From Parcubacteria group bacterium GW2011_GWA2_40_14 (GTDB taxonomy: Bacteria > Patescibacteriota > Minisyncoccia > Phycocordibacterales > DATDWN01), in NCBI GenBank assembly GCA_000996025.1, contig LBYF01000003.1:1-54464 (forward strand): DNA of 54,464 nucleotides. Reading direction: 5' to 3'. Position 1 is the first letter of the stretch. Each line of letters begins with the position of its first letter. The notes under the pieces were generated by a model that worked only from the letters and a program-made list of their open reading frames with translations, did not search any database and was not told the DNA's origin. Below are positions 9,747-40,923 of the stretch, in pieces. The position numbers were made by a program, and so were the translations under genes.

Positions 9747-10120
9747 TATTATCTCCTAGTTGTAAAGGTTATTTGTACTACAGACTCTAACTTGAGACTA
9801 TCATACAATAATGATGTTGTAAATGTGTTTATTTTTTCATATAACAAATCCAGGAAAATATCTCTCTCCTGCAATACGTCCTGGTGCATACTTCACATCT
9901 ATTTCCACCAATTCACCTGGCTGGTCAGTGTGGGCTGTTGGGATTGTGGCTATTGCCATGACCCTGCAGGGTATAGAACTCTGCTACAAAATATTTTGTG
10001 CTAAGAAATGAGAACTGGCGGTCGGGTAAAACCGGCCAGCCATTTTTTATTTACGATAAGCACGATACTGCTTCAAGTTGCACTTCGCTTGCTAGCTCAG
10101 TATCTAACGAAAACATGTCG

Positions 10121-21746: not shown

Positions 21747-22352
21747 TTATTGTTTCTTCTTTTTTATTCTTCCGTGCACAAATTCAATAATGGCCGGCAG
21801 AAGTGAAACAAAAATAATAGCAATAATTATAGGGGTAAGATAGAGATCAGCACCAGGAATTGCCCTGCCAAGGTAAAAACCCATAGTCGTAATACCTCCA
21901 GTCCACAAAATCCCGCCGACTAGATTGTCTCTCATAAAAGCCCTGCGAGGCATTTCCACTGCTCCTGCCAAAGTTGGGGCAAAAGACCTGACAACTGGAA
22001 CAAATCTTCCAATAATTATTGTTCTGTGACCATATTTTCTATAAAACTTTTCTGTGTAGTCTAAATGTTTTCGTTTGAACCAGTATCTGTCGCCACTGTC
22101 TAAAATAATATCTCGCAATTTCTTGCCCATTATATATGTGAAAATATATCCAGTGACGCTGGCTACAAACAAAACTGCCACAAGCAGGGCTAGATTAAAA
22201 TGTCCTCCAGACGCCAAAAAGCCGGTAGTAAAAAGCAAACTATCTCCCGGCAAGAAAAAAGTCGGCGGAAATGATTCCAAAAAAATAATTAAAAATAAAA
22301 TAACATACCCCCAATATCCAGCTGTTTGTATGAGATGAATCAAATAATCCAT
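21747..22352 (-). CDS. DedA-family membrane protein
   Basis: PGDSLLFTTG and IIIGRFVPVVRSFAPTLAG motifs. Multi-TM. Confidence 0.8.
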   Translation of the reverse strand: MDYLIHLIQTAGYWGYVILFLIIFLESFPPTFFLPGDSLLFTTGFLASGGHFNLALLVAVLFVASVTGYIFTYIMGKKLRDIILDSGDRYWFKRKHLDYTEKFYRKYGHRTIIIGRFVPVVRSFAPTLAGAVEMPRRAFMRDNLVGGILWTGGITTMGFYLGRAIPGADLYLTPIIIAIIFVSLLPAIIEFVHGRIKKKKQ

Positions 22353-33033: not shown

Positions 33034-33150
33034 TCATCCAGATTTTATTCCAGACAGAAGACATTTTGTATTCAACAAATTTTTAATATTCTCCCCGGCA
33101 AAAAGACCGATTTCATCTATTTTACTTACACTATGATAAATATGTTTCAT
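33034..33150 (-). pseudogene. SET-domain gene 5' remnant (38 codons)
   Basis: MKHIYHSVSKIDEIGLFAGENIKN, then unrelated sequence. About 90% nt identity to the first ~70 nt of the intact gene at 27108-27177. Confidence 0.8.
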
Positions 33151-33236
33151 ATTTTTTATAGTATATCATATAAAATTCTGTTTCTTCAATATCACTATTT
33201 TAATAGCTTGAAATTATACAATAAAGCCAAATTTTA

Positions 33237-33262: not shown

Positions 33263-33934
33263 ATGCAAAATATTTTTGAAAACAAATCAAAAGATGTCCT
33301 TGTTTTGTTTTCTGGTGGCAGAGATTCTTCTTCTGTCGCGGCTCTATTAGCTTTGGCTGGATATAAGATAAAACTATATACCTACCAAGCCGGTCTGCCG
33401 GAACTGACCGGACCACGAGGAGATTCCGCGCCAGATATTAGACATAAAGAACTTACACAAGCTTTTCCTGAAGATATTGACAGAGAAAGAATTATTGAGG
33501 GCAGTACATATTTGATTAGAAAACTAGCCATAGAAAAAACAAATATTGAACATGTTATCTACCCTATCGCCTTGGCGCTTGCGGTACACGCTAATGCCGT
33601 TTGCTATTGCTTAAAAAACAACATAAACACGATAGCTTCCGGATATTCCGGTTATCAAGCAAAAGAAGACAGGTATATTGAACAGAGCGGTGATTTTGTT
33701 TCACTGACTAAAGAATTTTTAGAGGAATATGATATCTCATATCTTACGCCAGTTATAGAAAAGTCTAAACTTGAAGTAATGGATATTTTGGAACGGCACA
33801 ATATCAGTTCCAATTCTCTTGAAAATAAATCTGTTTTTGGAGGAATTTCTTTTGATAAAGAAAAAGCCAAAGCTTTCTGGAAATCTTCTATTTCTTTATG
33901 TAGGGAATTTATAAAAAATATGCAAACCAGTTAA
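33263..33934 (+). CDS. PP-loop ATP pyrophosphatase (adenine nucleotide alpha-hydrolase, QueC/ExsB-like size)
   Basis: VLVLFSGGRDSS (SGGxDS PP-loop), 223 aa. Confidence 0.7.
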   Translation: MQNIFENKSKDVLVLFSGGRDSSSVAALLALAGYKIKLYTYQAGLPELTGPRGDSAPDIRHKELTQAFPEDIDRERIIEGSTYLIRKLAIEKTNIEHVIYPIALALAVHANAVCYCLKNNINTIASGYSGYQAKEDRYIEQSGDFVSLTKEFLEEYDISYLTPVIEKSKLEVMDILERHNISSNSLENKSVFGGISFDKEKAKAFWKSSISLCREFIKNMQTS

Positions 33935-33938
33935 AAGT

Positions 33939-34538
33939 ATGATAAAAAAAGATGCAACGTTATTGGTGACTTCTTCCTTATTAAAGAAAGCTGTGTATTT
34001 TGCGGCCAAAAAACATGACGGGCAATATCGCAAAGGAACAGATGTGCCATATTTTGCTCATCCAGTCTTGGTGGCATTAGGCGTTTTTAAATATTCACAG
34101 GATGAAAACGTGCTGGCAGTGGCAATTTTACACGATGTGATGGAAGATTGCGACGTTACATATACGGAACTGAAAGAGCTATTCGGCAGTAAGGTGGCCA
34201 ATATTGTCAAGGAAGTGAGTTCTCCGACAAATATACCGGTAAAAAACAGAAGCTGGAAAGATAGAAAGGTGTCGTATATGCGGCAAATTAAAAATATTTC
34301 AAAAGAAGCTTGCATTATCGTGGCGGTTGATAAAATGACCAATATGCAAGCGTATTTCGGAGCTACTGAAGCCAACAACAAAAAAAGTCTGGGTAAGTTC
34401 GGAGGTACATTAACGGATTATTTTTGGTATTATGGAGAAATATATAATATACTAAAATCAAATCTTGGAAATCATCCTGTTATAAAAGAATACGAAAAGC
34501 TTTTAAAAAATCATGAGAAAAACTTGCAAAAAGACTAG
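33939..34538 (+). CDS. HD-domain (p)ppGpp hydrolase-like protein (small alarmone hydrolase)
   Basis: AAKKHDGQYRKGTDVPYFAHPVLVA and AILHDVMEDCDVTYTELKELFGSKVANIVKEVS match the RelA/SpoT hydrolase (HD_4) blocks. Confidence 0.8.
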   Translation: MIKKDATLLVTSSLLKKAVYFAAKKHDGQYRKGTDVPYFAHPVLVALGVFKYSQDENVLAVAILHDVMEDCDVTYTELKELFGSKVANIVKEVSSPTNIPVKNRSWKDRKVSYMRQIKNISKEACIIVAVDKMTNMQAYFGATEANNKKSLGKFGGTLTDYFWYYGEIYNILKSNLGNHPVIKEYEKLLKNHEKNLQKD

Positions 34539-34578
34539 TATTCCACTAAGCTACTGTTAGAAAGGATGGTAAAAAAAG

Positions 34579-35067
34579 ATGGGTCAAGAGTTGATTCTCT
34601 TGTATCGAAAACTAATCGGTTGTTCCATTGAGTTTATTGCGGACGAGATTGCCACGACAGTTAAGCCGGTACTTTCGCAAAGTCCGACTATCAGCTACCG
34701 AATCAAAAGTCAAGACACACTGGCAAAAAAGATGATTCTGGTGAAGACAGAATCAATTATTGATATTGACGATGTGTATGCTTTCCGGATTCTCGTTTCC
34801 TCAGCGAACGAAGCATACTTGGTTCTTAAGGCGCTGACGAAGTCTTTCCGAGGTTTTTTAGACCATGACTATATTGCCAATCCAAAGACCCGTCCTGACA
34901 AACCTCATCTAGATGGAAAAAGTCTTAAGTTGCTTCAGTTCATCGCTTACAAAAACAACGTTCCATTTGAAATACAAATCACGACTTTTGAATGGAACGA
35001 GAGCAATGAATTGCTTCACGACGAATACCACCGAGAAAAATATCCAATTATAGACCATTCAGATTGA
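34579..35067 (+). CDS. RelA/SpoT-type nucleotidyltransferase (small alarmone synthetase; toxSAS candidate)
   Basis: YRIKSQDTLAKKM, DVYAFRILV and FEIQITTFEWNESNELLHDEYHREKY match the synthetase-domain blocks. Only 162 aa. Confidence 0.7.
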   Translation: MGQELILLYRKLIGCSIEFIADEIATTVKPVLSQSPTISYRIKSQDTLAKKMILVKTESIIDIDDVYAFRILVSSANEAYLVLKALTKSFRGFLDHDYIANPKTRPDKPHLDGKSLKLLQFIAYKNNVPFEIQITTFEWNESNELLHDEYHREKYPIIDHSD

Positions 35068-35073
35068 TAAGAA

Positions 35074-35187
35074 CTAATCTGAAGGGTCTTTTTTGTCTGC
35101 AACCAGTTTTTTTAATGTTAATATATCTTCTCCGACAAAGACGCCCATTCCATCTATTTTACTTTGAGCATGATATATTTGTTTCAT
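35074..35187 (-). pseudogene. SET-domain gene 5' remnant (37 codons)
   Basis: MKQIYHAQSKIDGMGVFVGEDILTLKK... Its upstream ATTTTATATAGTATATCAT is shared with the remnant at 33150. Confidence 0.75.
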
Positions 35188-35276
35188 ATTTTATATAGTA
35201 TATCATCCGTTTCATTGACAATAAAAGTGATTTGTGTAAAATAACATACAGATTTATGAAGAAAGGAGGTGAAAAT

Positions 35277-35348
35277 ATGGGATACCTGTATGCTGACAAG
35301 CCGGGTGTGGATAAACCACCACATCTTCCCAGACCGCGTCCAAGGTGA
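35277..35348 (+). CDS. 23-aa proline/arginine-rich peptide (oncocin-like core) or leader peptide
   Basis: AAAGGAGGTGAAAAT-ATG (ideal SD and spacing). MGYLYADKPGVDKPPHLPRPRPR*. Not in the track (short, and masked by the artificial 5' extension of the peptidase ORF). Confidence 0.5.
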   Translation: MGYLYADKPGVDKPPHLPRPRPR

Positions 35349-35355
35349 CAAAACA

Positions 35356-35385
35356 AAACGGGAGGATAGAGATATCTTCCCGTTT
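35356..35385 (+). terminator. 13-bp hairpin 8 nt after the peptide stop (terminator/attenuator candidate)
   Basis: AAACGGGAGGATA-GAGA-TATCTTCCCGTTT, followed by CAAATTTATTT (interrupted T tract). Confidence 0.55.
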
Positions 35386-35406
35386 CAAATTTATTTAAAA
35401 TTTTAT

Positions 35407-37401
35407 ATGGAAAAACTTAAAAAAGACAAGTATGCTTTTTTTGAAAAAAATACGGAGAGAACCGAAAAATGGATACTGTCAGAACAGTCCAAAACAACGG
35501 ATTATTTCAAAAATAACTCATATAAGAAAAGACTTTTCAAGCGGTTGGAAAAGATAAAAGACATTGATGAAAAGTTTCTCCCAGTCATACGAGGAGAAAT
35601 GTATTTTTTCCGTTGGAGAAAAAAGGGTGAACAGGTCTCTTCTTTGTATATGCAGAAAAATGCCAAATCAAAACAGGAAAAAATACTGGATTGTAACGCT
35701 ATGTTTAAAAAACACGGTTTGGTCGTAACTGACTGGACTGTTTCTAAAACGGGTAAGCTTCTTTCATATTCTGTTTCTAAATCAGGAAATGACAAATCAT
35801 CAATCCATGTCATAGATATTCAAAAAAGAAAAAATTTAACTGACTTTATTCCGGAAGAGATATATCCTGAATTCGAATGTTGGATGCCGGATGAGAGCGG
35901 TTTTTATTATAGCAGAAATAATCCCGGTACATCAAAAGAAGATGTAAAAATGCAAAATAAAATCTATTTTCACAGGATTGGCCACGGTTTTGCAAACGAC
36001 AGATACTTCTTCGGTAGAGACCTGAGCAAAACAGACAGAGTGCAAATGAAAATATCGGATGATGGGAATTATTTTCTTGTTACCGTTTTTGATTTTGCAC
36101 ATGAAAAAGAAAATGCAGAGATATACTTGGGAATTAGCTCCAACAAAAAGATAATCAGAATTCTCGGTAAAGAAAATTGCTTGCGATACCCGGTCTTGCA
36201 TAGAAACTGCGTCTATATCTTAAGTAATAAAGACACTCCTCACTGGAAAATTGAAAAGGCTTCCGTAAAAAATTTATTGGAAGGAAAGAAGAATTGGCGG
36301 GTTATAATCAAAGAAAATAAAAACCGAGTGATAGAATCTTTCAGTTTTATACAAGATAAAATGTTTTTAATCACACTGGAAAATGTTTCCTCTCATATCG
36401 GCGAATACACTCTATCTGGAAAATATAAGAGAAATATCAAACTGCCAGCTATAGGCACAGTATCCAAAATATATTGCCAAAAAGAAGGCAATGAGTTATT
36501 TTTCGCTTTTTCCTCTTTTGTTTTTCCAAAAGTCATATACAATCTTTCATTAAAAAATGATAAATTATCCGTTTTCTTTCAAAGAAAAATTTCAAATTCT
36601 TTAGAAAATACGACGGTAAGACAACATTTCTTCAAATCAAAAGACGGGGTTAAAGTTCCTATGTTTTTAATTCATAAAAAAACAATAAAAAAAGACGGCA
36701 ACAATCCCCTGCTTTGCTACGGCTATGGCGGTTTTGGTACGTCGTTAACGCCGTCTTTTGACCCGGGTATTATTCCTTTTCTGGAGGATGGCGGGATATA
36801 CGCGGAGATAAACATTCGAGGAGGAGGCGAATTCGGCGAAAAGTGGCACGAAGCCGGAAAATTATTCAATAAACAAAATTCTTTTGATGATTTTATATCC
36901 GGAATTAAATATCTTTACAAAAATAAATACAGTCGGCCTGAAAAAACCGCCATATTCGGTTGGAGCAACGGAGGACTGCTGGTTGGAGCAGTCGTAACTC
37001 AAGAGCCGGAAATATGCAAAGTGGCTGTTATCGGCGCTCCAGTTTTAGATATGGAAAAGTATTACTTATTTGACGGCGGCCGGTATTGGATACACGAATA
37101 CGGAAACCCTAAAAATAAAAGATATTTGGAAAATCTCCTTTCATATAGTCCGTATCACAATATACAAAAAGAAACAAGCTATCCTTCAATGCTTATCTTG
37201 AGCGCCAGAGAAGATGACAGGGTTCATCCAATGCATGCGTATAAATTTGTGGCTAAAATGAGAGATATTGCAAGACTGAAAAATCCTCTGCTGTTGCGAT
37301 TGGAAGAAAAAGCCGGTCATAGCGGAGCAAACGGCATGAATAAATCAAATGAACAACAAGCGGACATATTGTCTTTTATATACAAAGAATTGAGAACTTA
37401 A
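35407..37401 (+). CDS. Prolyl oligopeptidase (S9A family)
   Basis: N-terminal KYAFFEKNTERTEKWILSEQSKTTDYF (PYRWLED-type region), beta-propeller, catalytic GWSNGG, D and H (AGHSG). Start MEKLKKD at 35407 rather than 35269. Confidence 0.9.
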   Translation: MEKLKKDKYAFFEKNTERTEKWILSEQSKTTDYFKNNSYKKRLFKRLEKIKDIDEKFLPVIRGEMYFFRWRKKGEQVSSLYMQKNAKSKQEKILDCNAMFKKHGLVVTDWTVSKTGKLLSYSVSKSGNDKSSIHVIDIQKRKNLTDFIPEEIYPEFECWMPDESGFYYSRNNPGTSKEDVKMQNKIYFHRIGHGFANDRYFFGRDLSKTDRVQMKISDDGNYFLVTVFDFAHEKENAEIYLGISSNKKIIRILGKENCLRYPVLHRNCVYILSNKDTPHWKIEKASVKNLLEGKKNWRVIIKENKNRVIESFSFIQDKMFLITLENVSSHIGEYTLSGKYKRNIKLPAIGTVSKIYCQKEGNELFFAFSSFVFPKVIYNLSLKNDKLSVFFQRKISNSLENTTVRQHFFKSKDGVKVPMFLIHKKTIKKDGNNPLLCYGYGGFGTSLTPSFDPGIIPFLEDGGIYAEINIRGGGEFGEKWHEAGKLFNKQNSFDDFISGIKYLYKNKYSRPEKTAIFGWSNGGLLVGAVVTQEPEICKVAVIGAPVLDMEKYYLFDGGRYWIHEYGNPKNKRYLENLLSYSPYHNIQKETSYPSMLILSAREDDRVHPMHAYKFVAKMRDIARLKNPLLLRLEEKAGHSGANGMNKSNEQQADILSFIYKELRT

Positions 37402-37446: not shown

Positions 37447-38022
37447 TTATATTTTCCTCTCCTTTCTTTTTGGAAAAAACAGAAACCAGAGAAGAACTCC
37501 GTCTAAGACAAAGAGCCAGACCGGATATACAATTTCACCAAATGTCATTTGCCGGATAGCAAAGAGATTGATGAAATTTCCGGTTTGAGTCAGCGTCCAG
37601 GCGAATTTGTCTTCTTCCTTTGGATGTTTTCTGGTTTTTTGGATCGTTGGCCACAGAGCAAAGGTGTCAGTGGTCAACGCGGCAATAAGCGCCACATCTG
37701 GCCGTTTGAAAACCCAGAGAACAATCAAACTGACAACAGAACCCAAGATACAGAAATTTTCACCAACTTCTTTTTGCTTTTTTCCATATCTTATTGAAAG
37801 CAAAGCGATGGTAATGATACCAATCACTTCGCTTCTGGCAACCCACAAGGTTTCCTTGGCTCCAGCGGCCTCTGCGCTAAAGTAGAGCGTTACTGCCAGC
37901 GGAGACCAAATCCACCATGTGGTCCGACTTGGTTTGGTTTCTCCCCTAAATATGGATAGGATGTAAAATCCATATCCAAGAAGAGAAAATATACCGGCAA
38001 CTTTCCCAAAAATTTCTTGCAA
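37447..38022 (-). CDS. Integral membrane protein, unknown function
   Basis: About 6 hydrophobic segments. TTG start preceded by AAGGAGG. Confidence 0.6.
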   Translation of the reverse strand: MQEIFGKVAGIFSLLGYGFYILSIFRGETKPSRTTWWIWSPLAVTLYFSAEAAGAKETLWVARSEVIGIITIALLSIRYGKKQKEVGENFCILGSVVSLIVLWVFKRPDVALIAALTTDTFALWPTIQKTRKHPKEEDKFAWTLTQTGNFINLFAIRQMTFGEIVYPVWLFVLDGVLLWFLFFPKRKERKI

Positions 38023-38098: not shown

Positions 38099-39283
38099 TT
38101 AAAAATACTTTTTGAGGAAACTCTTGACCTCTTCAAGTTTCATGGAATCAGCATATTCGCTTGGAAATATATCTAAATTATCTTCTTGGCGAAGTTCAGA
38201 CCATTGATTACTGAATATTTTCTCTATCCCTTTCATTAAGGAGAGTCCTAGATTTGGATATATATCTTCTATACTATGTGCTAAATAGTAAATGATATTA
38301 CGTTGATAAGTGCTCTGATCCTCCTTGCGTTCTTGATAATTTGAAAAACTATATTTTGGATAACAAGCGTCCAGAATAACTTTTGAGATATCCCATAAAG
38401 GCATCAATAGCTTTATAGAACCAAATTTACGCACAGGGAATGCAAGAGGTTTTTGTCCATTCATTAATGAAAATAGCAGGTCTGACAATAGGTCCTCACG
38501 ATTAAAACCAAGTATATATTCGTTTGTGTGATATTCTTGGCAAAGTTTTCGTGCAACAATGGAAATGAGATAGGTACCAAAGAAATGGCTCGTGTTATTA
38601 CCGAACTTCTCAGAGTATTCCTTATAAAAGTTACTGAGAGACTCCTTCATTTCTAATAGTTTTTCAATTTCCTCATTTCTATAAACATGATGAGTAAGAC
38701 CATGAGTAAGACAGAGTTCAGAAGCTCTATCTGCTGCAAATGTAGGCCAGATTGGTTCAAAAATAATGGTAAAGAAAATAAAGCGTTTGTTGGAATTCTC
38801 TAAGGTTAGCGCTTTAAGTCCTTGCGCAAGGGTATTACTGTCTCCACCGCCAGAAATTCCTACGATTACAGTATTAAAGGAACTATTTTTCTTAACAAAG
38901 TCAACAACTTTTCCCTTCACCAATTCTTTTGCAGAATCTGGATTTAATTCATGAATAGTTTGACTACAACCATCATCTCCAAAGTTAAATTCTGGAATGG
39001 TGATTACAGGATTTTCGACTTTATTATAGAATGTTTTCTGTGGTAGTACATCCTTTAAATCTATATTCCTAATACAATGAAGCATTATCTTTTCTTCAAA
39101 AGGAATAACAAAAATCAGTGTGTTGAGTGGAATTGGGCGTACTTCTTCTCCCATTTTTGCGTATCCTTGGAAAAGATTTGATGGAATACGTTTCGTTCGC
39201 AAGACTTCTTCTAAAGTAAGGGAATCATCTGTCTTTACCGCAATCTCTTCAGAAGCAGTTTTGATAGTGATGTCTCTTAACAT
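38099..39283 (-). CDS. TilS/TtcA-like PP-loop ATPase with a ~130-aa N-terminal extension
   Basis: VIVGISGGGDSNTLAQGL (PP-loop) and LGFNREDLLSDLLFSLMNG (TilS-like block). The N-terminal domain is unassigned. Confidence 0.65.
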   Translation of the reverse strand: MLRDITIKTASEEIAVKTDDSLTLEEVLRTKRIPSNLFQGYAKMGEEVRPIPLNTLIFVIPFEEKIMLHCIRNIDLKDVLPQKTFYNKVENPVITIPEFNFGDDGCSQTIHELNPDSAKELVKGKVVDFVKKNSSFNTVIVGISGGGDSNTLAQGLKALTLENSNKRFIFFTIIFEPIWPTFAADRASELCLTHGLTHHVYRNEEIEKLLEMKESLSNFYKEYSEKFGNNTSHFFGTYLISIVARKLCQEYHTNEYILGFNREDLLSDLLFSLMNGQKPLAFPVRKFGSIKLLMPLWDISKVILDACYPKYSFSNYQERKEDQSTYQRNIIYYLAHSIEDIYPNLGLSLMKGIEKIFSNQWSELRQEDNLDIFPSEYADSMKLEEVKSFLKKYF

Positions 39284-39633: not shown

Positions 39634-40749
39634 TTACATGTATCCTCGCTCTCCCTTGTTCAGTTTTGGATAGAGGCGTTGCATCCATTCATTGACCATT
39701 GGACGCTGAAGCGATCCTTCCGGCGAACGAAAGACTAGTGTCGCTACAACGTTTTTTTGGTCAGGACGAATACCAAGATTCTCTCTTGCCTTAATCGGTA
39801 ACTGCTCGTAAGAAATCTCGGAGTATTGAATCTCCTCAATGTAGACGGCTTCTAATCCAAGCTCATCACGTATCTCCTCACAGACATCCTCTTCAGTTTT
39901 GTCCATAGAGGTAGAGTACGAGAGTACCCTCTTTGTAGCAGGCTGGTCAGATACCTTCATGAACTTATCAAGATTTGTCATCTGACGTTTTATTCGTGGG
40001 TCACTTGACCTCAAAATACGAATATCGTCAATTTCTTTAGTGATCATGACGAGCCGATCAAGTCCCATTCCCAGAGCAAGTCCGGAGTATTCTTGCGGGT
40101 CAAGACCGGCATTCTTGAGAACTGTCGGGTTAGCCTCTCCACATTCAAGAACTTCAAGCCACTTTCCATTCACTAGAACCTCAACCTCAAGACCATTAAT
40201 CGTGTACGGATGCTTCATCTCATTGGCTCGATACTTGTATCCGGGAATGACACTGTTCAATATCGTTTCAATTAGATGAATGAGGTCTAGGCGACCAAAA
40301 TGAGGATTTCCATGTTTGATTCGCCAGACGTCCATCTGATTTGGTTCACCACAGTGAATTTTGTCAACAACATCACGACGGTAACACATACCCGGCAAAA
40401 CAACGATTGTATCGTTGACACCGTCACGAGATGCTTTCCTAAGCCAGTTTGGGATGGCTGCTGAAGTATGGGTTCGTAAAATGATGTCCTCTGTGACATA
40501 CCTTGTATAGCGAGACGACCGCCCAGCATTGTCCACCGGGAAAAGAAGGTCATCGAAGTTTTCTTTCACAGACACTTCCGGATTTGAGCGAACTTCTTCA
40601 ATAATCGTCTCAGCATAGGATGTTTCCATAGCCTGCTTTATATTAGAGACGACAATATTGACGGCGTGAATTCCATTCTTCGGATCGGTTAAGTCTGGAA
40701 TGACTAACGAAGCTTCCAAACGTTCTGGTGACATGATTTCTTTTTTCAT
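39634..40749 (-). CDS. Stand-alone PheRS-alpha-like class II ligase with a C-terminal ferredoxin-fold (FDX-ACB-like) domain
   Basis: ILRTHTSAAIPNWL, VLPGMCYRRDVVDKIH and GLALGMGLDRLVMI match class IIc motifs 1-3 of PheS. No PheS N-terminal coiled coil. The C-terminal ~95 aa resemble the B3/4-B8-type anticodon-binding fold. GGAG SD. Confidence 0.7.
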   Translation of the reverse strand: MKKEIMSPERLEASLVIPDLTDPKNGIHAVNIVVSNIKQAMETSYAETIIEEVRSNPEVSVKENFDDLLFPVDNAGRSSRYTRYVTEDIILRTHTSAAIPNWLRKASRDGVNDTIVVLPGMCYRRDVVDKIHCGEPNQMDVWRIKHGNPHFGRLDLIHLIETILNSVIPGYKYRANEMKHPYTINGLEVEVLVNGKWLEVLECGEANPTVLKNAGLDPQEYSGLALGMGLDRLVMITKEIDDIRILRSSDPRIKRQMTNLDKFMKVSDQPATKRVLSYSTSMDKTEEDVCEEIRDELGLEAVYIEEIQYSEISYEQLPIKARENLGIRPDQKNVVATLVFRSPEGSLQRPMVNEWMQRLYPKLNKGERGYM

Positions 40750-40923
40750 GAGTGTATCTCCTTTCTATATCTTTGTCATGTAATTAATAACACGACTTAG
40801 TTTGGTTAGAACTAATCTGTCATTTATAATATAGAGATGACTTTTATTGTCAATGATTCTATAGGTTTGTAATATGGGGAAAAGATTATATTTTATGAAT
40901 GCTTTGTGAGTTATAATTGTTTT

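Follow-up and report, generated by a model that had tools for sequence, protein, structure and literature searches.

The plus strand of the 54,464-nucleotide stretch analysed here (the window; contig LBYF01000003.1 of Parcubacteria group bacterium GW2011_GWA2_40_14) carries, directly upstream of a gene for a prolyl oligopeptidase (POP), a short proline-rich open reading frame (ORF) whose product resembles the antimicrobial peptide oncocin. The ORF occupies positions 35277–35348 (ATG GGA TAC ... AGG TGA), with its ATG at 35277, 23 codons and the stop codon TGA at 35346–35348, and is translated as MGYLYADKPGVDKPPHLPRPRPR. Codons 11–21 (35307–35339) specify VDKPPHLPRPR, the conserved core that resembles proline-rich antimicrobial peptides (PrAMPs), a likeness brought out by alignments, a shuffle test and a match in the PDB. 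Upstream lie a promoter-like site of the sigma-70 type (TTGACA-16-TAAAAT, 35215–35242, 11 of 12 positions matching) and a Shine–Dalgarno (SD) site, AAAGGAGGTG (35262–35271), which ends 5 nt before the ATG and has its GGAGG core at 7 nt. Beginning 7 nt after the stop codon is a G+C-rich, terminator-like hairpin of 13 bp (35356–35385, about −18 kcal/mol), followed by a U-rich tail and an A/U-rich spacer (35383–35406); the gene for the 664-residue S9A POP (35407–37401) has its ATG 21 nt past the hairpin. Taken together, these signals and the conservation described below indicate that the 23-codon ORF is a genuine, conserved and hitherto unannotated small gene with a promoter-like site, a very strong SD and a terminator-like hairpin.

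The pairing of AAAGGAGGTG with the anti-SD sequence is predicted at −12.9 kcal/mol, which makes it the joint strongest, with one other gene, among the 45 large-ORF starts of the window. No SD is recognisable at 36 of these 45 starts; strong sites are conspicuous in the window because most large ORFs have none, and the missing SD of the POP gene is uninformative for the same reason. At many window genes, for example those at 22352(−), 32371(−), 40924(+), 50006(+) and 52311(+), a TATAAT-like box ends a few nucleotides before the ATG, and boxes so close to a start codon without an SD are what would be expected for leaderless mRNAs. The TAAAAT at 35396–35401, within the spacer before the POP gene, is accordingly placed to be a possible −10 box for a leaderless POP mRNA, and the TATAAT and GATAAT boxes past the hairpins of two related loci described below, L247 and L217, could likewise be POP promoters.

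The peptidase contains the Peptidase_S9_N (PF02897, 4.8e-63) and Peptidase_S9 (PF00326, 4.9e-54) domains of Pfam, and its catalytic positions, S520 (GWSNGG), D603/D604 (DDRVHP) and H638 (GH), are invariant in 26 relatives. Its best relatives in the PDB are prolyl endopeptidases (2bkl, 3.6e-120; 3iuj, 7.8e-112), with oligopeptidase B at about 4e-57, and it scores 192 bits on the NCBIfam OpdB model against a cut-off of 1313. We conclude from these matches that the enzyme is in all probability a true post-proline oligopeptidase, nearer to prolyl endopeptidases than to oligopeptidase B. Inspection of its N-terminus, made by eye without a predictor, revealed no evident signal peptide. In the mechanical ORF list, a 710-residue ORF with a GTG start spans the peptide region, and public gene calls of the POP, of 703 residues (P0001) and 710 residues (P0122), which correspond to 35290–37401 and 35269–37401 of the window, also start upstream and run out of frame over the small gene. 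It is because the POP calls extend across the small ORF in another frame that the peptide was never annotated. A first-pass annotation, made by reading the letters of the window, had already described most of this arrangement. The 23-codon ORF, its masking by an artificial extension of the peptidase ORF, the hairpin at 35356–35385 and the S9A nature of the enzyme are all borne out, the last by both of its domains; the spacer from stop to hairpin and the gap from hairpin to POP are each one nucleotide shorter than the eight and 22 then given, and the claim that this was the best SD in the window holds for the strength of the predicted pairing, if the tie with the other gene is allowed.

Relatives of the small gene were found by locating contigs that encode relatives of the POP and then reading the DNA upstream of each POP. 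The first-pass annotation had suggested such a comparison of upstream regions, and short ORFs with a DKPP-x-LP-R-P core were indeed present before related POPs, with hairpins of different sequence also kept. The family comprises at least six loci (the window and L004, L217, L252, L247 and L246), and in the five further loci too a promoter-like site and a strong SD precede the short ORF, which is followed by hairpin and POP. The peptides are MGNDKKPPERPPHLPRPRPN in L004 (ORF 9861–9923; POP P0002, 51% identical to the window POP), MAEDKKPPERPPTLPRPRPK in L217 (123–185; P0004, 52%), MEDDKKPPERPPWLPRPRP in L252 (173–232, GTG start; P0127, which falls in the 90%-identity cluster of P0003, 51%), MENDKKPPERPPYLPRPR in L247 (1872–1928; P0034, about 40%) and MTDKPPHLPQPRPQPRPQPPKK in L246 (1363–1431; P0039, about 41%). 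All six members use GAAAGGAGGTGA or GGGGGTGA as the SD, and the −35 block CATTGACA and the −10 region of the window can be aligned with their counterparts in L004, L217, L252 and L248, the last being a variant locus discussed below. The POPs of the family loci are 33–77% identical to one another; in a neighbour-joining tree the window POP groups with P0002/P0003/P0004 and P0039 in a single clade, next to which P0034 branches off deeply, and the six would thus appear to belong to one deep Patescibacteria POP lineage. P0034 and P0039 are only 33% identical, so that conservation of the peptide core far exceeds that of the enzyme.

The six peptides are 18–23 residues long, contain 6–9 Pro each and share the consensus core [DE][KR]PP-x-LP[RQ]PR, where x is H, H, H, Y, W or T. 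The tail after the PRPR(P) unit has 0, 1 or 9 residues; it varies in both length and sequence, in contrast to the conserved N-terminal and core part. Within PPxLPRPRP, six codons differ between the window and L004, all of them synonymously; of the nine nucleotide differences between L004 and L217 in the last 18 codons, seven fall in third positions. Of the six reading frames, the sense frame is conserved best. Together with the prevalence of synonymous and third-position changes, this shows that the peptide sequence is under selection. These data bear directly on the proposal that the ORF is a chance one in a 5′ untranslated region, with conservation due instead to an RNA element or to an ORF of the opposite strand. 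The ORF has just 23 codons, no gene caller reports the peptide, and the second-best conserved frame is antisense (reading GRGRG); however, that frame contains a stop in L004 and offers no ORF in common, the start codon, SD and stop of the sense ORF are kept in all six loci, and a search of Rfam matched no known leader, riboswitch or other family. We find the proposal barely credible.

The pair of genes has a restricted distribution. No such ORF precedes the Patescibacteria-like POPs of L006, L090, L093 and L245 (41–45% identical), nor is one present at the 80 POP loci of other phyla among the matches listed in a POP-alignment scan of a genome collection (POPs 31–36% identical). GCA_001824155.1 (MHWO01000027) also contains the window locus, as do many metagenome contigs from groundwater; the closest relatives with a name belong to the Patescibacteria, among them Candidatus Zambryskibacteria, Parcubacteria and Sungbacteria. 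None of the genes flanking the pair in L004 has a counterpart in the window, and the neighbourhoods of L246 and L247 carry other domains; therefore, the shared unit is the pair of peptide and POP only. Among called proteins, a collection of 5.8 billion clusters, queried with three of the peptides concatenated, held none that shared even three 5-residue words with them. A metagenome scan with a back-translated PPHLPRPRP pattern gave at least 120 listed matches, all out of frame and nearly all in high-GC DNA, and as it missed known JGI contigs it is uninformative on the size of the family; a scan of viral contigs yielded high-GC chance matches only, and tblastn against phages and plasmids nothing relevant.

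The first-pass annotation had noted that the peptide matches oncocin at 11 positions. Oncocin is VDKPPYLPRPRPPRRIYNR (PMC12529121, PMC4797290), and the window peptide does have 11 identities with it (11 of 13 over oncocin 1–13), a number that 3000 composition-preserving shuffles never reached. For the L246 peptide there are 10 identities with oncocin (0 of 3000 shuffles equal), and the peptides of L004, L217 and L252 have nine each with Bac7(1–16), RRIRPRPPRLPRPRPR (PMC4797285), with 3–6 of 3000 shuffles as good. The C-terminal ten residues of the window peptide, PPHLPRPRPR, differ from Bac7(7–16), PPRLPRPRPR, only by H for R (9 of 10). The only PDB chain matched was DalDro, GHDKPPYLPRPT, a chimera of type I, with 9 of 12 residues identical over DalDro 1–12, at an E-value of 0.86 that is not significant alone. 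The PP-x-LP-(R/Q)-P-R core of the type I PrAMPs, a group that includes oncocin (Onc112), pyrrhocoricin (20 residues; reference sequence from PMC4797285), metalnikowin (VDKPDYRPRPRPPNM; PMC4797285), Dal2 and Bac7, is present in all six peptides.

On the ribosome, the cores of type I PrAMPs take one common conformation, in which the contacts are made by Asp2, Pro4–Pro5, position 6, Leu7, Pro8 and Arg9: the residue at position 6, Tyr in oncocin and Arg in Bac7, stacks on C2452/U2504, Leu packs against it and Asp2 touches G2553; the C-terminal tail varies and is disordered (PMC4797290, PMC4797285). The conserved positions of the family coincide with these ribosome-contacting positions. Both groups have in common the core D-K-P-P-(aromatic/basic)-L-P-R-P-R-P, a conserved N-terminal and core part and a variable tail, and in L246 the peptide, M-TDKPPHLP..., has its core at the N-terminus in the register of VDKPPYLP in oncocin. 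The family nevertheless differs from the type I PrAMPs in several respects. PrAMPs have been described from animals, insects and plants (PMC4797285, PMC12056610), as products of secreted precursors; the present peptides are encoded by stand-alone ORFs of 18–23 codons on Patescibacteria contigs, with no signal peptide in place of a secreted pre-pro-protein, are mostly extended at the N-terminus, frequently have His or Thr at the stacking position and are always paired with a POP lacking an evident signal peptide. A bacterial PrAMP, or an example from Patescibacteria, was not found in the literature. Release-factor trapping of type II (apidaecin/drosocin-like) was considered and rejected: the C-terminus lacks the penultimate Arg pharmacophore (PMC13233979), and the position of the stop is variable.

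We favour the explanation that the stand-alone small gene encodes a ribosome-targeting, PrAMP-like peptide paired with its cognate POP as antidote and/or maturase, and assign it a probability of about 0.4. The mechanism is favoured because the peptides match, position by position, a pharmacophore that acts on the ribosomal tunnel, a universal target. The core [DE][KR]-P-P-(H/Y/W/T)-L-P-(R/Q)-P-R would bind the peptidyl-transferase centre, the crevice of the A site and the exit tunnel's upper part, and the bound peptide would block the first elongation step, as do oncocin, Bac7 and Dal2. The POP would cut the peptide at every Pro–X bond, so that the producer's ribosomes would stay free (the antidote or immunity role), and where a member has an additional DK(K)PP unit at its N-terminus, the enzyme would mature the peptide by first cutting behind that unit, which would uncover an N-terminus like that of oncocin. 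The hairpin would end most transcripts past the small gene, giving an abundant message for the peptide and a scarce one for the POP. The ribosomes targeted might be the producer's own, in a toxin/antidote or growth-control role, or those of a host or competitor cell. There are precedents for the individual steps: a review cites a report (Mattiuzzo 2014, cited in PMC8533160) that oligopeptidase B, a related S9A enzyme, degrades PrAMPs; an N-terminal extension keeps oncocin inactive until it is removed by a protease in an engineered pro-peptide/protease system (PMC12529121); and in microcin C a short ORF, an intrinsic terminator and an enzyme gene set the ratio of peptide to enzyme (mccA–mccB; PMC4231749).

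Several points weigh against this explanation. Binding of the peptide to the ribosome is proposed from resemblance to known binders, and the family is known from at least six loci. Five of the six peptides have 6–10 extra N-terminal residues relative to the oncocin register, with the D/E–K/R before PP conserved; oncocin without Val1–Asp2 loses activity 80-fold, and a free N-terminus near D–K is needed (PMC4797290; the requirement also in PMC12529121). These five would need processing, because type I action requires the free N-terminus near D–K. Cleavage by the POP would leave G-V-D-K... in the window and E-R-P-P... in others, one residue short of oncocin, and since the POP would destroy the mature peptide too, one enzyme would have both to mature and to destroy. 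In four of the six members the residue at position 6 is His or Thr rather than Tyr or Arg. At the compared loci there is no linked signal peptide, export system or conserved transporter, and delivery to another cell is left unexplained. Finally, a Pro-rich short ORF before a hairpin equally resembles a leader peptide.

The leader alternative holds that ribosomes, slowed on the Pro-rich ORF when Pro-tRNA or elongation factor P (EF-P) is limiting, shift termination or the fate of the mRNA and so tune POP expression. The layout suits it well: short ORF, terminator-like hairpin and gene occur in this order in all six loci, each ORF has 6–9 Pro in 18–23 codons, PP motifs (PPE, PPW, PPH) are found in every member, and the SD is strong. 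Hairpins of 11–17 bp, with differing sequences and a U-rich 3′ side, are present in L004, L217, L246, L247, L252 and the deletion variant L089/L248, and the predicted intergenic folds range from −15 to −32 kcal/mol. The spacers from stop to stem are 7, 16, 7, 7 and 4 nt in the five loci measured, so that in four of the five the base of the hairpin lies 4–7 nt after the stop and a ribosome terminating there would be in contact with it. An 8-nt piece of the window ORF (ATCTTCCC) is a repeat of the hairpin's right arm, and its pairing with the left arm is predicted at −12.9 kcal/mol, a value equalled by 3.8% of shuffles. The regulatory logic would be attractive for an amino-acid-scavenging organism, and there is a precedent in mgtL, a proline-codon leader sensitive to EF-P (PMC6460261, PMC5021804).

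Other features do not fit a leader. The mutually exclusive antiterminator pairing of an attenuator, sought as left arm against ORF or spacer in the window, L004 and L217, was not found: no alternative pairing is held in common, and the ORF/left-arm duplex compares with shuffles at p = 0.04, 0.09 and 0.36 in these three loci, respectively. The residues D, K, L and R are conserved as much as Pro, and the Pro codons change freely; the stop lies anywhere from 0 to 9 codons past the core, and the spacer reaches 16 nt in L004. The ORF is missing from the other Patescibacteria-like POP loci and from the 80 listed loci of other phyla mentioned above. Comparison with known leaders leads to the same picture: in mgtL/mgtP and the his, trp and phe leaders, too, a short ORF in which one amino acid abounds precedes a terminator-like hairpin and a gene related to that amino acid, but the present family has no detectable antiterminator, conserves residues that would not be sensed and can lose the ORF naturally while hairpin and gene stay.

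That loss takes the form of a clean 73-nt deletion, which removes the SD and the whole ORF. Contigs encoding the identical POP protein P0127 occur both with the ORF (L252) and without it (L248–L251, L254 and L255), and L089, whose POP P0003 is in the same 90%-identity cluster as P0127, carries the deletion too. A single nucleotide of 2025 distinguishes the POP genes of L252 and L248. The promoter-like site, the post-stop spacer, the hairpin and an intact POP are all retained, and among the contigs sampled the deletion haplotype is the commoner, by 7 to 1. As near-identical POP genes occur with and without it, the ORF is dispensable at strain level, and the hairpin is retained independently of it. 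Presence or absence between strains is common for dispensable toxin and bacteriocin genes. In the Zambryskibacteria haplotypes L248–L254, a transposase gene of the rve family lies about 270 nt past the POP, inserted relative to L004, and a sequence upstream looks by eye like a tRNA gene; the upstream flank of the ORF-bearing L252 is unlike that of the deletion haplotype.

These comparisons alter the standing of the two readings offered by the first-pass annotation. Its attenuator is weakened, the Pro-rich ORF–hairpin–POP layout being real but without a significant antiterminator, with non-Pro residues conserved and with a natural deletion of the ORF; as a contender the leader is doubtful, albeit one to be taken seriously. 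Its bioactive peptide is strengthened by the conservation of the ribosome-contacting residues, the variable tail, the register of L246 and the strain-level dispensability, although the pro-piece that it envisaged fits four or five of the six members and is not universal. Its statement that neither had been described agrees with our own reading of the literature on the POP family; leaders that sense proline codons or EF-P, such as mgtL (PMC6460261), nonetheless exist elsewhere.

Two further explanations keep the peptide but give it another partner. In the first, it is a small protein acting on a target other than the ribosome, either as a regulator or inhibitor of the POP or as a ligand of the substrate cleft of DnaK, and its likeness to PrAMPs reflects general rules of Pro/Arg-rich recognition. 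The strict link with the POP would fit this. DnaK was the first reported target of PrAMPs. The peptides are below the substrate size limit of POPs (<30 amino acids; 10.1101/2024.09.22.614393) and full of Pro–X bonds, binding to DnaK has been reported for oncocin and Bac7 (PMC4797290), and the pair lies a few genes downstream of dnaK–dnaJ in L004 (with grpE too) and L248. We nevertheless regard this explanation as unlikely: the position-by-position match to the ribosome-contacting core exceeds what composition would give in the shuffle test, and the dnaK neighbourhood is absent from the window. The stretches in question, L004 4808–8602 (grpE–dnaK–dnaJ) and L248/L249 1–2217 (dnaK–dnaJ), are upstream of the peptide–POP pair in what may be a coincidence.

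In the second, the peptide is the precursor of a ribosomally synthesized and post-translationally modified peptide (RiPP), with the POP as its processing or macrocyclising enzyme in the manner of the eukaryotic PCY1, GmPOPB and OphP. The POP is homologous to these cyclases (PCY1, about 2e-81; POPB, about 4e-74; OphP, about 9e-71), the order of short ORF, hairpin and enzyme is precursor-like, and PP-loop ATPases and a PheS-related ligase are found near the pair in the window. However, the POP is closer to ordinary bacterial prolyl endopeptidases than to the cyclases, the neighbouring enzymes are not conserved with the pair, and there is no C-terminal follower, as four of the six members have 0–1 residue past the last core Pro and the tail is variable. 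A RiPP pathway therefore seems quite improbable.

For a ribosome-targeting peptide with a cognate peptidase, the closest parallels are provided by small toxin systems. In the microcin C unit mccA–terminator–mccB, as in bacteriocin–immunity pairs, a very short, strongly translated ORF is followed by a terminator and then by the gene of an enzyme acting on the peptide (PMC4231749), and the order of bacteriocin–immunity pairs, peptide first and protective or processing gene second, is that of the peptide–POP pair. The pair differs from these systems in that the partner is a peptidase rather than an adenylating enzyme or a membrane immunity protein, no export gene is present and the peptide is unrelated. 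Toxin–antitoxin systems with an enzymatic or proteolytic antidote show the same unit of two genes, a putative translation inhibitor and a neutralising enzyme, and the same presence or absence among strains; here, however, the toxin would be an 18–23-residue peptide of the ribosomal tunnel and the antidote a housekeeping-type S9A peptidase, a combination that fits no described type.

The remaining genes around the pair in the window are described for completeness. A direct repeat of 84 nt, 81% identical, occurs at 33086–33169 and 35123–35206, upstream of an operon with QueC-like, HD and RelA–SpoT genes and of the peptide gene, respectively, and may be the trace of a duplication or insertion that built the region. 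Each copy holds the start of one of two paralogous minus-strand ORFs of 37–38 residues (33034–33150, MKHIYHSVSKIDEIGLFAGENI...; 35074–35187, MKQIYHAQSKIDGMGVFVGEDI...), which some gene callers report; the idea that they are fragments of SET domains, prompted by an apparent SET-domain N-terminus, received no support from Pfam. The operon (33263–35067, +) encodes a QueC-like PP-loop protein, a stand-alone RelA/SpoT HD hydrolase of 199 residues and a stand-alone RelA/SpoT synthetase domain of 162 residues, the last with a weak match to the PADLOC candidate PDC-S33; PADLOC made no defence-system assignment. In contig L002 the QueC-like gene is called as two fragments (33 and 140 residues), possibly through a frameshift.

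On the other side of the POP, a PheRS-alpha-like protein (39634–40749, −) matches NCBIfam NF051887, 'PheS-related mystery ligase SrmL', with 396 bits against a cut-off of 300, and is followed by a TilS-like PP-loop ATPase (38099–39283, −), a called ORF of 79 residues and a 191-residue protein (37447–38022, −), which has no family match, is hydrophobic by inspection and possesses the other strongest SD of the window. The promoter block of the peptide gene (TTCATTGACAATAAAAGTGAT..., 35211–35254, +) recurs inverted at 40814–40857 (−), with two mismatches in 21 nt, before the minus-strand operon that starts with this ligase; none of 100 shuffles gave two or more matches, and the recurrence suggests shared regulation or a copied promoter cassette. 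The SrmL group does not travel with the peptide–POP pair in other genomes, and a functional link of the pair to the QueC-like, HD, RelA–SpoT, PP-loop or SrmL genes was rejected, as these domains are absent near the pair in L004, L247 and L246.

We found no description of this family, which therefore appears to be new: the PrAMP pharmacophore in a bacterial form linked to a peptidase, or else a Pro-rich leader that is sequence-specific and serves a peptidase. Extended to the group as a whole, the explanation that we favour would mean that the ultra-small Patescibacteria encode type I ribosome-targeting peptides and use POP for self-protection and/or activation, in a toxin/antidote module or as a weapon of these epibionts against their host cells; we put this forward tentatively. 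If it is true, the type I peptides of Patescibacteria would mean that the oncocin/Bac7 pharmacophore was invented independently a third time, and for the first time in bacteria, which would have reached the PP-x-LPRP solution to tunnel binding as well as insects and mammals. Antibiotic design would then gain natural variants with His, Trp or Thr as the stacking residue or with Gln in place of Arg, and the family would also offer a strategy of self-protection built on a post-proline peptidase and a testable handle on how Patescibacteria, which have not yet been grown alone, control their own translation or that of their hosts. Should the peptide instead prove to be a leader, it would regulate a peptidase in a sequence-specific, tunnel-sensed manner, in a group about whose gene regulation hardly anything is known. 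Either way, the locus shows how such genes stay hidden when gene callers stretch a peptidase ORF over them.

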